A stretch of DNA of 24,516 nt from Chlamydiia bacterium (GCA_041688145.1 JBDNIV010000030.1:1-24516); one strand, 5' to 3'; counted from the stretch's first letter, positions 13,736-17,965 are shown. Program-made: numbers and translations. The notes: generated by a model not told the origin, from the letters alone.

Positions 13736-15361
13736 TTAGACCCGAATGTCATAGTAGCGAATCTGAGCTCCGCATGATCGATCATCTGGAGAAGTAGCAG
13801 CAACTAATGTGTTTTCATCTAACCTGAGCATCTGAGTAACTTGACCTACATGGCTACGAATTGTGTGAACACTAGCTGGTTTGCGTATGTCCCAAATCCG
13901 GATTGTTTGGTCTTCTCCACTAGTTGCAAAGGTTTGACTTTCGAGAGGCAGGGCTGACCAAACGCGTCTTTGATGCTCTGACCACTCGTGTACAAGTTTT
14001 TTTTGACTCACGTCCAAAATGCCGACCTTTCCTGTCAAAAATGCGAGAACAAAAGTATTTATTTCGTTAGCCATAGGGTGCATATCTTGGATAAAAGCGC
14101 GCTGTTTACCTTTACGTCCTTGAGGGGGAGCGGTAGGCTTTCCTTCCTTTAAGATAATGCCATTATCTTCCCAAATGTCTGACTTTTTTTTCCAAGATTG
14201 TACTACACAGCCTACAACAGCTAAAAGCTGATCGGGGGTTTGATGGTGAATTGAAAAGACCCAATCTCTTTCGTGCACACGGGTCGTTGACTCCGTTCGG
14301 TTCTCCCATAAATTGTAGAAGTCAAACTGTGTTGGAAATCCAGCAAAAAAACCAGGGGCAGTCGGATTAATAGAAGCTGTTAAGCAGTTCACTCTCTGAG
14401 CATTTGCTTCCATGCAATGAGCCCCTTTTCTAGGGGGGCGCTTAATCGGTATAGTCCGAACAAACCTTCCACAAGTAGTCCATAAAGAGATATTGCCATT
14501 TCGTGAGCCAGTAAGAAAGTAAGCTGAAGATACTGGAGTTATATCTGTGACCCAGTACTCATCTCTTTGCATACCAGGCTCTACATCAGCAACAATTGTT
14601 ACGAGTTCGCGGTTTGAGCTAGCCCACTTTTTTATTGTTGTGTCTTTAGAGCCAGTGAGAAATGTACCATCGCTTAGCATTACCATCTTTAGTATATCAT
14701 CCTGGTGTGCATCATGCGTTACATGAACAAGCTCAGGGGCATCTTTATGCGTACCTCGAGCAAAGCTTTCTCCTCGATGGCTCATTTCTTCCGGCGGCTG
14801 ACCAGCCTGAAATGGCAGGTAGAGTAAATGTTCTAGTTTGCCTTCTTGGTATCGCCCATTCCAAGAGTGTACGATCTTAAATCCCTTTTTCTGGAAAAAG
14901 AGCAGAGAATCCTTCTTGTCCTCACTTACAGTTACATGGTATCCACTAAAGGAATTGCAGCGTTTTGGAGCCTCTTCGAACAGTTTATTCATGAGCGATG
15001 AGCCTAGTCCACGTCCTGAATTTTGTTGTGATTGATCGACAAAAAGAGATTTAATTTCGACACTATTTTGTAACCCGTATTCAGCATATTCATTGCTTAG
15101 CTGTGTCTTAAACTGTAAAATACCGCACGGGGTATCTCCTTCATAAAGAACAAAGCAAACACGATCTTTGCTTTGGGAGATTTGTTCAAGCGCTTTATCC
15201 TGACGACCATAAAGAGGGGTCAAAATCCGTTGAAAAATATCAGTAATAATACCCATTTTTTCCTGTAGTCTAATGCCATCTGCTCTGTAGAAAATTCGGT
15301 TTGGAGCAAGAGTGTGATACGCAGAAGGATTGCGATCTGGAGAAACATTAGAAGATGCCAT
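13736..15361 (-). CDS. GNAT acetyltransferase - WD40 beta-propeller fusion protein
   Basis: GNAT part: EIKSLFV, motif A NSGRGLGSSL (GRGLG at 15002-15016), VTVSE, FFQKKGF. WD40 part: FLTGSKDTTIKKW, FLTGSRNGNISLW, FATSGEDQTIRIWDIR. Start moved to ATG 15361 (GAGGAG SD at 15369-15374). Confidence 0.88.
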   Translation of the reverse strand: MASSNVSPDRNPSAYHTLAPNRIFYRADGIRLQEKMGIITDIFQRILTPLYGRQDKALEQISQSKDRVCFVLYEGDTPCGILQFKTQLSNEYAEYGLQNSVEIKSLFVDQSQQNSGRGLGSSLMNKLFEEAPKRCNSFSGYHVTVSEDKKDSLLFFQKKGFKIVHSWNGRYQEGKLEHLLYLPFQAGQPPEEMSHRGESFARGTHKDAPELVHVTHDAHQDDILKMVMLSDGTFLTGSKDTTIKKWASSNRELVTIVADVEPGMQRDEYWVTDITPVSSAYFLTGSRNGNISLWTTCGRFVRTIPIKRPPRKGAHCMEANAQRVNCLTASINPTAPGFFAGFPTQFDFYNLWENRTESTTRVHERDWVFSIHHQTPDQLLAVVGCVVQSWKKKSDIWEDNGIILKEGKPTAPPQGRKGKQRAFIQDMHPMANEINTFVLAFLTGKVGILDVSQKKLVHEWSEHQRRVWSALPLESQTFATSGEDQTIRIWDIRKPASVHTIRSHVGQVTQMLRLDENTLVAATSPDDRSCGAQIRYYDIRV

Positions 15362-15507
15362 TAAAAGTCTCCTCAAGGGATTTGAAATTCTTGAATGTGT
15401 CAAAAAGCTTAAGAAATAGCAAGAAATATTTTATTTTATAAAAATTTCTATGTAAAAAAAAATTCATTTAGTAAGATTAGACTCAATTTATACAATGAGT
15501 TGAGATT
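15362..15507. promoter_or_regulatory. AT-rich divergent promoter region of the three-gene module
   Basis: 146-nt AT-rich spacer between head-to-head genes. Individual promoter boxes cannot be assigned unambiguously. Confidence 0.5.
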
Positions 15508-16584
15508 ATGGCAGGTATCGCAGAATCAAGTGGTCTAAGTAGATTTGTCTTACTTGACCCAGCAAAAAGATTGTTAGTACAGGCTTCACAAGAAAACTTT
15601 GCACGCTTTCAAAGAGTCTTTGACGCCTCAATTAAGCATATTACTGTTGATCCTGATAAAGTCCTTAAGCGCATTGAAGATCGCTGCTATGATTGTGATC
15701 TATTTATGAATGAAATCTCTGTACAGGCTGCTGCTTGCTATGATAAAAAGCCTTTTCAATATCAGGACATTTCTCAAGCTTTACGAGTCCACTTCTTGCA
15801 TGGAGGTGGGGAAAGCAAGCTCCAATTAGACCTCCTCATATTTGTTGTATCTCGAGCAATAGATAAGCTAGCCAAAGCGCTTATTTTCCCCATACCAAAT
15901 ACCGACAGAAATATGAGAAAACTGCTTGAGAGATATGGCTTTACTATCCACTCTAAAGATGAAGGCTCTACTGTTTTTAAGTGTGAAAGCATTACGGCTT
16001 TACAAAAAGCACTTAAGTTGGATTCTGTGCCTTCAGCTCAAGGATCAGAGGCTATTAGCGTGCATCGCTCTCTAGCTATAGCTGCTCCTGACGTACTTCC
16101 TATCCCTCATTTTTATCAGCCTATGACTCTGATGAAAAAGTATGTTAATTTTATCCAAAGGGGTCAAAAAACAGTGGAGGGAAGAATTAATGCAGGTTCC
16201 TTTTATGTTAAAAAATTGCATCGTGGTGATGGGTTTAGATTCTTTTACAAGCAAAATGAAAGCGATGATGTTTATGTAACAGTTACTGAAGTCAAAGAGT
16301 TTGATACCTTTGAAGAAATGCTTAAATACTATGGCTATACAGCATCTGTGCCAGATGCTAGAAGTCTTCAGCATGCGGTAAGTATCTATGCGGGCATTCG
16401 TAGTTATCCAGAAAGAGAGAGAGCATCTGGAGTAGTTGCTCTTAAGTTGCGCCTTGACCCAACACCGAGGAAACGGCCTCATCAAGGAGATTATGATCTA
16501 GGAGATGCACAGGCAAATGACTACAATGGCGATGGGCCAAGAAAACGAAATCACCGACATTTAAATAGTTGGGAGAAGAATTAG
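15508..16584 (+). CDS. Degenerate GNAT-like domain + ASCH domain protein with basic C-terminal tail
   Basis: ASCH signature IQRGQKTVEGR, GD.F.F, FDTFEEML and GVVALKL (16123-16455). The N-terminal region aligns by eye with the neighbouring GNAT (DKVLKRI, LLERYGFTI). Two PRKR motifs in the tail. Confidence 0.82.
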   Translation: MAGIAESSGLSRFVLLDPAKRLLVQASQENFARFQRVFDASIKHITVDPDKVLKRIEDRCYDCDLFMNEISVQAAACYDKKPFQYQDISQALRVHFLHGGGESKLQLDLLIFVVSRAIDKLAKALIFPIPNTDRNMRKLLERYGFTIHSKDEGSTVFKCESITALQKALKLDSVPSAQGSEAISVHRSLAIAAPDVLPIPHFYQPMTLMKKYVNFIQRGQKTVEGRINAGSFYVKKLHRGDGFRFFYKQNESDDVYVTVTEVKEFDTFEEMLKYYGYTASVPDARSLQHAVSIYAGIRSYPERERASGVVALKLRLDPTPRKRPHQGDYDLGDAQANDYNGDGPRKRNHRHLNSWEKN

Positions 16585-16585
16585 T

Positions 16586-17965
16586 ATGGCGACAGCTCGC
16601 ATTCATATGGGGCCCTCTGCTTATCCACCGGCTTTTTATTGTACGTTCGGCCATCAGGTGATGCAAAATCCTGTTATGAACCTGAATTGTCAGCACTTAT
16701 TTGATGCAGCTGTTTTGGCAAACAATAAGAGATGTCCCGTAGATGATACAGTACTCGATTGTATACCCTTTAATGAACTGAAAGAGCTCATTAAAGCTAA
16801 CGTTTCCCTTTCCCCAAAAAAATCTAATCCTGCTTCTCAAGGACCTACTCCACTTAAGCCAAAAATTGTTCTCTCAGCAGAAAATGTGCATGGAGATGAT
16901 GTTCACGGTTTTATCCAATATAATGGGGGCTTTGTTTCAGGTTCCAAAGATGGGACTATCAAGGGTTGGGGACCAGATCTTCAGCATAGAGTCGTCTATT
17001 CAGGAAATGGAGGAGCGATAGATTATAAATACTGGGTTACTGCGTTAGCTTCTCACCCCAACGCAACACCTTTTTTTAGCGGTTCAAGGGATGGGCAAGT
17101 AGTTGCATGGAGTCCTAAGGGCAAGCCTTATACACCCGAACCTTGGGTTTTCCCAGATAGTGGGCAACACAAAGCTAAAGCAAGAAACCTTCATCGCGTG
17201 ACGTGCCTAGCAGCTCTACCAGATGAAGGTAGTAACACGCCTTTTCTTGCAGGCACTCCTCAGCGTATTCATAAGCTCGTGTTAGATGCGGAGGGGGGCA
17301 AGATAAGAATGGTAGGATCAACAAAGGTGCATGACAATGACTGGGTCTACTGCGTAGATCCTGTTGATTCTCAATTTGGAGATCAAAGATTAGTAGTTGT
17401 TGTTGGTGCAGCTCTTGAAATCTGGGACCAAAAAGACGAGAGTCTAGCTGGAAGATGGAAGTTTTTTTCGCGTCCTGTCGCAGAAGATCGAGGTGAAATT
17501 GGCCGCTCCCAACAAGGGCAAATCCAAAGGCCGCATATATCTGCTATTGCCCGGGGGGCAGCTAATATAGCTGAGATTGCTTATACATGCTTTGAAAACA
17601 ATAGGGGATTTGGCGCTGTTCGCATCGTAAATATCGAAAAGTCTGTGATCACCTTTAATGCTGAAGAACATATAGGGCGCACGTGGTGTATTGCGTATGC
17701 TACGCCTCAAATTTTTGCAACGGGGGCGGATGACCATCTTATTAAGCTCTGGGATGTGAGGGTGGGTCCAAAATCAATTCTGTCGTCACCTCCCCAGAGT
17801 GGGCGCGTTTCTTGCTTAGTCTCTCCTAGAGAAAATCATCTGGTATCAGCTTCTTGCCCAGATGATGTTAAAAGAGGGGGTGAAAAAGCGAGTTTCACAT
17901 TATGGGATATTCTAGGAGGCAGTCAACCTGCGATTAATGACAGTGATTTTCCGCCTCTGTATTGA
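16586..17965 (+). CDS. RING/U-box-like domain - WD40 beta-propeller fusion protein (candidate E3 ligase)
   Basis: N-terminal PPAFYC...MQNPVMNLNCQHLFD...CPVD...IPFNELKELI. WD40 repeats FVSGSKDGTIKGW, FFSGSRDGQVVAW, FATGADDHLIKLWDVR. One-nt gap after the upstream stop. Confidence 0.85.
   Translation: MATARIHMGPSAYPPAFYCTFGHQVMQNPVMNLNCQHLFDAAVLANNKRCPVDDTVLDCIPFNELKELIKANVSLSPKKSNPASQGPTPLKPKIVLSAENVHGDDVHGFIQYNGGFVSGSKDGTIKGWGPDLQHRVVYSGNGGAIDYKYWVTALASHPNATPFFSGSRDGQVVAWSPKGKPYTPEPWVFPDSGQHKAKARNLHRVTCLAALPDEGSNTPFLAGTPQRIHKLVLDAEGGKIRMVGSTKVHDNDWVYCVDPVDSQFGDQRLVVVVGAALEIWDQKDESLAGRWKFFSRPVAEDRGEIGRSQQGQIQRPHISAIARGAANIAEIAYTCFENNRGFGAVRIVNIEKSVITFNAEEHIGRTWCIAYATPQIFATGADDHLIKLWDVRVGPKSILSSPPQSGRVSCLVSPRENHLVSASCPDDVKRGGEKASFTLWDILGGSQPAINDSDFPPLY

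Follow-up and report, generated by a model that had tools for sequence, protein, structure and literature searches.

A reshuffled GNAT–ASCH–WD40 cassette of environmental chlamydiae, predicted to act on an N-acetyl mark in the host

We analyzed a 24,516-nucleotide stretch of DNA (the window) from a Chlamydiia bacterium (GCA_041688145.1 JBDNIV010000030.1:1-24516), in which three adjacent genes at positions 13736-17965 encode GNAT, ASCH, U-box-like, and WD40 domains. A sequence-only reading of this DNA had proposed that the three genes form an undescribed host-directed modification system. Our analyses place them in a conserved cassette of Chlamydiota that is likely directed at the host cell. 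The window is contig C47 of a 1.28 Mb genome that is 92% complete; the named relatives of its GNAT-WD40 protein are Chlamydiota, and the sequencing runs that match it best are lake and freshwater metagenomes. The genes and their parts are as follows.

13736-15361, minus strand: gene 1, GNAT-WD40, 541 amino acids counted from the ATG
14807-15304, minus strand: GNAT domain of gene 1 (residues ~20-185), by its residues the cassette's single intact catalytic GNAT
13739-14743, minus strand: WD40 propeller of gene 1 (residues ~207-541), GNAT-fused clade, seven-bladed by model
15362-15507, no strand: AT-rich divergent spacer of 146 nt between genes 1 and 2
15508-16584, plus strand: gene 2, degenerate GNAT, linker, ASCH, and basic disordered tail, 358 amino acids
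15544-16023, plus strand: pseudo-GNAT of gene 2, GNAT fold by model, coenzyme A (CoA)-binding loop lost
16111-16461, plus strand: ASCH domain of gene 2, PH0355/PF0470 type, GxKxxExR motif intact
16462-16581, plus strand: disordered tail of gene 2 with two Pro-Arg-Lys-Arg clusters, a candidate nuclear import signal
16586-17965, plus strand: gene 3, U-box/RING hybrid, linker, and WD40 propeller, 459 amino acids
16625-16801, plus strand: U-box-like domain of gene 3, with a candidate zinc site and a shortened central helix
16859-17920, plus strand: WD40 propeller of gene 3, non-GNAT clade, with ~20 near-invariant non-structural residues

This arrangement, including the 1-nt gap between genes 2 and 3, agrees with the sequence-only reading and is borne out, domains included, by open reading frames (ORFs), Pfam, profiles, and structural models. 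Contigs from other sequencing runs span both the divergent spacer (X2, X3, and X4) and the gene 2/3 junction, and the layout is therefore not an assembly artefact. A candidate sigma70-like site lies in the spacer at 15456-15428 (minus strand), though such sites are not enriched in the spacer region (9 versus 8.5 in shuffles), and promoter and terminator scans were at chance level. A single further genome represents the same family; it retains the upstream synteny and lacks the cassette.

Three genes with shared parts

Gene 1 begins with a disordered, Ser/Pro-rich segment that precedes its GNAT. Pfam identifies WD40 repeats and a GNAT (PF00583, E 3e-7, 31.2 bits against a cut-off of 20.7), and an AlphaFold2 model (predicted local distance difference test 88.7) combines GNAT topology with a seven-bladed propeller, in agreement with fold searches. 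The protein has 42 full-length relatives. We defined 11 key GNAT residues from 81 independent GNAT-only relatives, and gene 1 retains 11/11, including the CoA pyrophosphate-binding glycine loop and the clade-invariant positions. NCBIfam places no characterised family over its cut-off for this GNAT.

Gene 2 carries an ASCH domain recognised by Pfam (PF04266, 21.9 bits, cut-off 21.2), and the model of this domain is nearest to PH0355 (2z0t; Z 17.5, root-mean-square deviation (rmsd) 1.6, 109 residues aligned). Its motif residues K221, E224, and R226 are invariant (24/24), and KxxExR is present in 65 of the 67 ASCH domains compared. The N-terminal domain scores 28-29 bits against GNAT clade profiles, as opposed to a maximum of 7.3 in 1000 shuffles, and is modelled as a GNAT fold (Z 12-14; against 3f5b, Z 13.9, rmsd 2.9, 147 aligned). 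Although a BLASTP comparison of genes 1 and 2 returned nothing and leaves the relationship invisible, profiles and models thus support the related GNATs of the sequence-only reading, and we take their kinship to be real. The gene 2 GNAT retains 0/11 key residues and has a shortened CoA-binding loop. It is degenerate by these residues, so the window's cassette has one predicted writer: of the two related GNATs originally noticed, that of gene 1 is intact and that of gene 2 is not.

Gene 3 is recognised by Pfam as a WD40 protein with a below-threshold zf-Nse match. Its N-terminal domain falls below Pfam cut-offs, while orthologous domains exceed the U-box cut-off in 5/9 cases, and the best solved matches of the family profile are LubX and plant U-boxes (E 5e-7 to 4e-5). 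A candidate zinc site formed by Cys35, His37, Cys50, and Asp53 is invariant (10/10). The full E2-binding surface of a U-box or RING consists of a loop-1 hydrophobic residue, a central helix, and a loop-2 proline. In this family the loop-2 proline is invariant, the loop-1 residue is variable, and the helix falls 4-5 residues short of its LubX and PUB12 counterparts. Because the helix is shortened, ligase activity appears doubtful. The earlier suggestion of a ubiquitin or SUMO tagger divides: orthologues and the family profile point to U-box kinship, and we rejected a SUMO ligase, for which the only match is sub-threshold (SP-RING comparison with zf-Nse/MIZ over 10 domains; best 23.5 bits, 27 needed).

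As had been proposed, genes 1 and 3 have propellers that are paralogues, with 29% identity over 348 amino acids (E 9e-32). A quick tree divides the propellers into a GNAT-fused clade (21) and a non-GNAT clade (35) with support of 100, each spread across many families, and U-boxes are limited to part of the non-GNAT clade. (The GNAT and ASCH trees were built with FastTree and carried long-branch warnings.) Seven residues are invariant in all 56 propellers (gene 1/gene 3): W270/W150, T272/T152, R287/R168, N320/N201, R323/R204, W367/W253, and W468/W367. Additionally fixed in the non-GNAT clade are K121, Y147, K198, R200, Y255, R365, R407, D104, D105, H107, and C424. From the repeat register, read by general WD40 rules, we infer that most invariant residues lie on the top face. 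Both propellers would thereby share an invariant basic-aromatic face that suits RNA or a phosphopeptide, and this shared face lends indirect support to the idea that the cassette proteins act on a common target.

The propellers form a separate clade, set off by a gap in E-values from 1e-82 to 1e-36; one named member is P0251, a protein of Parachlamydia acanthamoebae. Fold and profile searches gave no specific eukaryotic orthologue, and the propeller profile matches Fbw7/Cdc4 among others. We rejected recent duplication or conversion, as paralogues in the same genome are about as alike as those in different genomes (0.32 versus 0.31). Within the non-GNAT clade, D104, D105, H107, and C424 of gene 3 are fixed in all 35 members and come from the first and last blades, which neighbour each other, a possible metal or catalytic site. 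At one locus (L136), a GNAT-WD40 gene faces a paralogue with a degenerate GNAT and a WD40 propeller. The genome also encodes another long multi-repeat WD40 protein outside the cassette clade (G000:C46, about 7500-9470, minus strand).

A conserved cassette that is reshuffled between genomes

We surveyed an even sample of Chlamydiota comprising ~400 genomes, using for the propeller clade a profile built from the surveyed loci themselves. Matches were found in 59/401 genomes for gene 1, 48/400 for gene 2, and 36/400 for the propeller clade. Consistent with the co-occurrence that the sequence-only reading called for, 34 of the 36 propeller-clade genomes contain the GNAT and ASCH clades as well, and in 31 all three lie within one fetched stretch; of the remainder, three are divided among short contigs or contig ends and two hold propeller pieces only. 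The GNAT clade occurs without a propeller in 23 genomes. Beyond this sample, 25 loci taken from metagenomes and species genomes held all three in 18 cases, three of which repeat known arrangements, with five of the other seven cut at contig ends and two being fragments.

Contrary to what had first been supposed, the three genes do not form a fixed system. A U-box is present in 11/36 propeller-clade genomes and the window's exact set of three architectures in 7/36, and cassettes differ in order, orientation, and fusions, which include GNAT-WD40, GNAT-ASCH, ASCH-WD40, LRR-GNAT-WD40 (L049:7527-9824; P0045, P0089), and a free U-box. The simplest pairs an intact GNAT-ASCH protein with a propeller (L054, L055, L064). 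On this comparison of gene content, the unit is a conserved, reshuffled cassette with a core of GNAT, ASCH, and propeller and an optional U-box. We rejected the divergent layout as a defining trait: of the 31 genome loci only one shows it, with L129 and L130 as further instances elsewhere.

A regularity emerges when intact and decayed GNATs are compared. GNAT-WD40 proteins retain 11/11 key residues in 21/21 cases. Where a separate GNAT lies nearby, none of the 26 ASCH-fused GNATs reaches 10 key residues (median 3), compared with 10-11 in seven of the eight that have no such neighbour; the genome of the exception has a GNAT-WD40 on another contig. In a recent duplication (L061), the same decay is starting. 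By this pattern, each cassette holds a single intact GNAT, and where a second GNAT exists it is the ASCH-fused copy that decays. The pseudo-GNAT is fast-evolving and at times lost, and across the surveyed loci the cassette partners never occur apart from a GNAT. In L050 and L052 the GNAT-WD40 gene is split over two frames, and the ASCH-fused GNAT of L050 is among the least decayed.

Presence of the cassette is patchy and site-variable, and the flanking genes differ at every locus (116 of 163 flanking ORFs scanned). The sole recurrent neighbour is an F-box protein, found at seven loci by Pfam (one below the cut-off) and at an eighth by BLAST clustering. The GNAT clade comprises 794 representatives, the named matches of which are all chlamydial or carry a label that genome search placed in the same order; its commonest multi-domain form is the GNAT-ASCH fusion (37 of 147 newly listed representatives). 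With the queries used, we found no GNAT relatives in viral contigs or phage records.

GNAT relatives without a propeller adjoin MazG-like, HD, MFS transporter, methyltransferase, and SLOG genes (for example at L072, L074, L077-L079, L081, L083, and L086), and these neighbourhoods resemble a nucleotide-derived small-molecule cluster. At L069-L073, L084, L085, and on the Simkania plasmid pSn (127111-129281; L122), members of the clade are fused to a Mutator-type transposase domain and have a MazG-like gene on one side and, on the other, a convergent ASCH gene with a signal-peptide- or lipoprotein-like start. In P0112 and L057:3278-5221, the GNAT clade has an acetyl-CoA synthetase fused to it or next to it.

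Elsewhere in the window, a 916-amino-acid ORF of effector-like size (7561-10311) has no Pfam match below E 0.05, and a second, ordinary GNAT (6953-7432; PF13673, E 3e-20) is not kin to the cassette clade. Immediately downstream of gene 3 lie two opposite-strand ORFs without a confident Pfam match (18814-19860 and 18031-18801, the latter a multi-pass membrane protein), and a 254-amino-acid ORF at 22944-23708 contains a near-duplicate stretch of ~75 amino acids.

Evidence for host direction and the likely substrate

We examined the non-domain segments of cassette proteins for K[KR]x[KR], which we take to be the classical nuclear import consensus. Among cassette ASCH fusions, 24/29 have the motif in a disordered linker or tail (shuffle mean 4.2; 0/1000 reach the observed count), as do 26/32 independent GNAT-ASCH proteins (mean 5.7; 0/1000), and its position shifts between linker and tail. 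It is absent from GNAT-only relatives (0/81), independent GNAT-WD40 proteins (0/11), and non-GNAT propellers (0/36), and was seen once among 20 cassette GNAT-WD40 proteins, upstream of the likely start. Solo ASCH proteins have it in 8/27 cases, and those outside cassettes in 1/7. An ASCH clade of 19 lacks the motif, and its 13 cassette members are nearly devoid of an N-terminal extension; five ASCH relatives near propeller-free GNATs have signal-peptide-like starts.

The Ser/Thr/Pro fraction of residues 2-21 is 0.30-0.34 in the three cassette classes, compared with 0.18 for 282 flanking proteins, 0.25 for F-box neighbours, and 0.20 for solo ASCH proteins. By composition, the N-terminal segments of the cassette proteins resemble type III secretion signals. 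The genome encodes a FHIPEP-family export gate (749 bits), a family that also covers FlhA.

Together these features argue well for the host-directed role that had been proposed. Because the nuclear motif and the U-box make sense only in a eukaryotic cell, and because an export gate of the type III family is encoded in the genome, we regard a host-directed effector cassette as likely. If the cassette is host-directed, we lean slightly toward a nucleic-acid substrate. We take the cassette to be old and probably nucleus-directed. The reading that we prefer, tentatively and short of calling it probable, is an injected accessory cassette of environmental chlamydiae that both writes and erases an N-acetyl mark, with host RNA as the most likely substrate (chemistry of the N4-acetylcytidine (ac4C) type).

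Under this reading, the cassette proteins would be secreted into the eukaryotic host by a type III system, and the ASCH protein would enter the host nucleus and hydrolyse or bind acetylated cytidine. The GNAT would acetylate substrates of the same class, its own propeller holding it in position. The second propeller would bind the same anionic ligand or complex and, in those cassettes in which it bears a U-box, bring host ubiquitination to that ligand or to the cassette's own effector. Short signal-less ASCH copies, which some cassettes have and the window's lacks, might remain in the bacterium and be protective. The GNAT is tied to an ASCH amidohydrolase by fusion, decay pattern, and gene order, and would therefore most simply make the mark that the ASCH removes or reads. 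In the accessible part of a recent preprint, all 19 ASCH proteins assayed removed ac4C from tRNA, with the motif Lys and Glu/Thr essential (bioRxiv 10.64898/2026.02.27.708502), and an earlier genomic study predicts nucleic-acid acetylation for GNAT–PUA-like fusions that have a second ASCH (PMC7641849). Of possible ac4C writers native to the genome, TmcAL was not found in the 92% complete assembly, which gave two weak helicase-domain matches. A fuller scenario, which we consider rather unlikely, is a rewriting of the host epitranscriptome: an injected ASCH would erase or read NAT10-type ac4C in the nucleus, the GNAT would be a new, ATP-independent cytidine writer guided by an RNA-binding propeller, the paralogous propeller (with an optional U-box) would remove a host ribonucleoprotein (RNP) factor, the signal-less ASCH would protect the bacterium, and the whole would have arisen from a prokaryotic GNAT-PUA conflict module.

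Several observations weigh against the preferred reading. Gene 2 itself lacks a strict K[KR]x[KR], its Pro-Arg-Lys-Arg clusters being a looser variant only, and basic clusters of this kind could bind nucleic acid rather than importin. Where a cassette is split, its intact GNAT lacks an import motif. The Ser/Thr/Pro-rich start, a weak compositional proxy for secretion that depends on the chosen starts, also reaches 0.28 in propeller-free GNATs. The distances of the two propeller paralogues are weakly correlated (rho 0.19, 116/2000 permutations), and the surveyed genomes are not independent samples. The acceptor of the GNAT is a prediction; its best solved relatives, which are weak, are polyamine and protein N-terminal acetyltransferases, acting on amines and proteins. 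An intact GNAT-ASCH fusion would place writer and eraser in one chain, a futile cycle unless the ASCH reads only or the sites differ. In the part of the preprint available to us, some GKER-type ASCH proteins were inactive on free ac4C and one was an RNase, and the 19 assayed may not include the PH0355 subtype (bioRxiv 10.64898/2026.02.27.708502).

The alternative that survives best, though we judge it unlikely, is host-directed acetylation of protein – chromatin or RNP lysines, or N-termini – with the ASCH as a tether or reader, the propellers binding a phosphorylated or acidic peptide, and the U-box degrading the marked protein. Hat1–Hat2 offers a precedent, as a GNAT and a WD40 protein that together acetylate histones. 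Naa50, Ard1, and Gcn5 are among the GNAT's best solved sequence relatives (E 7e-6 to 0.05), the propeller profile matches Fbw7/Cdc4 and the top-face arginines are conserved, a U-box requires a protein substrate, and no futile cycle arises. These matches are generic, however, and the ASCH catalytic residues are retained in 65/67 domains. The presence of several ASCH copies, including signal-less ones, better fits an enzyme that undoes a mark, and a basic propeller face would be a poor fit to basic histone tails.

A second alternative, markedly less probable, makes the GNAT a toxic effector that is bound, reversed, or degraded in the host by pseudo-GNAT/ASCH and (U-box-)propeller metaeffectors. 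As far as the source was accessible, LubX is such a metaeffector of its neighbouring effector SidH (PMC7830128), and LubX is the best solved match of the U-box profile; the constant company of the GNAT and the retained fold of the modelled pseudo-GNAT would suit this arrangement. The propeller face is conserved in the GNAT-fused paralogue too, which instead points to an outside ligand, and the pseudo-GNAT's fast evolution and occasional loss do not favour it. The LubX match is moreover to the second U-box, which in the material available does not bind E2.

Small-molecule chemistry is slightly more doubtful still. Here a nucleoside, nucleotide, or amine would be acetylated and deacetylated, and the non-GNAT propeller would be a subunit that binds the ligand or takes part in catalysis. 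The MazG-like, HD, MFS, and methyltransferase neighbours of propeller-free GNATs speak for it, as do the five ASCH relatives there with signal-peptide-like starts, the invariant Cys, His, and two Asp of the non-GNAT propeller, and the two cases of a fused or adjacent acetyl-CoA synthetase; nuclear motifs, the U-box, and LRR fusions nevertheless fit macromolecular host targets.

Least probable is an intrabacterial conflict system (toxin–antidote or anti-phage) like the (PIN)-GNAT-EVE and ASCH operons, with the eukaryote-like domains as bystanders: the GNAT–PUA-like fusion with a second ASCH has the layout of those operons (PMC7641849, as available), the GNAT clade weakly matches the middle of PADLOC model PDC-M11A (positions 169-288; E 5e-9 to 3e-4), presence is patchy and site-variable, and one relative is transposase-fused on a plasmid, but nuclear motifs and a U-box would be useless in a bacterium, the cassette proteins have no PIN or EVE, the window's three proteins have no meaningful defence-model match, and the GNAT was not found in phage collections. 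In the 116 of 163 flanking ORFs of at least 90 amino acids that were scanned, we found no RHH/DUF1778 antitoxin of the kind paired in type II GNAT-RHH systems.

Relation to known systems and significance

Several known systems come close to the cassette in design. The (PIN)-GNAT-EVE and ASCH operons (Bell et al. 2020, PMC7641849) likewise have a GNAT–PUA-like fusion, a second ASCH nearby, a mobile and patchy distribution, and predicted nucleic-acid acetylation. By Pfam and fold, however, the cassette's fused domain is a PH0355-type ASCH rather than EVE; the cassette has no PIN or AAA ATPase, and it adds WD40, U-box, nuclear motifs, and secretion-like N-termini. The ASCH ac4C amidohydrolases YqfB, TthASCH, EOLA1, and TRIP4-ASCH (10.64898/2026.02.27.708502) share the fold, a GKER-type motif, and an essential Lys and Glu. 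They act in their own cell, whereas the cassette ASCH, a predicted enzyme, is fused to a (pseudo-)GNAT, with a nuclear motif, in an apparent effector cassette.

The chlamydial F-box, BTB, RING, and U-box families NEX and PEX (Domman et al. 2014, PMC4209131) also combine eukaryotic ubiquitination and repeat domains in environmental chlamydiae, and tested members have type III signals. They are expanded LRR and TPR families, unlike the single-copy, enzyme-centred cassette, and the main text of that paper, in the portion available, does not contain 'WD40' or 'acetyltransferase'. Legionella LubX–SidH (PMC7830128) similarly places a U-box beside another effector, but LubX has two U-boxes, no propeller, no GNAT or ASCH, and type IV delivery.

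Prp19, COP1, TRAF7, and algal U-box-WD40 proteins have the domain order of gene 3 (Atlas feature matches 0.89-0.92). Compared with these eukaryotic ligases, the cassette propeller is not orthologous, the U-box helix is shortened, there is no coiled coil, and most cassettes lack a U-box altogether. In METTL1–WDR4, FTSJ1–WDR6, and Hat1–Hat2, a WD40 propeller positions a transferase on its substrate. The cassette propeller differs in being fused to a bacterial GNAT and duplicated, and the likeness is one of analogy only.

The cassette resembles a blend of (PIN)-GNAT-EVE/ASCH operons and the effector clusters of intracellular bacteria and is a member of neither. Neither this cassette nor a secreted ASCH or an RNA-acetylation effector is described in the full-text literature searched, which mostly does not extend to subscription journals, and the available part of a nucleomodulin review (PMC7819608) has nothing on any of them. 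The view that no system with this combination has been described thus stands within that literature.

If the preferred reading is true, the cassette would let bacteria edit the acetylation of host RNA through injected proteins, which has no precedent in the literature searched, and a prokaryotic GNAT-ASCH conflict module would have been turned on eukaryotes by way of import signals, propellers, and a U-box. The GNAT-ASCH pairing, hitherto only predicted to act on nucleic acids, gains a testable setting. It may provide a small RNA acetyltransferase that works alone and could serve as a tool, and a conserved host ligand should be recoverable with the invariant propeller face. Even if the substrate is protein, the cassette would represent an uncharacterised effector family present in at least a dozen chlamydial families; if it is host RNA, the activity would be categorically new.

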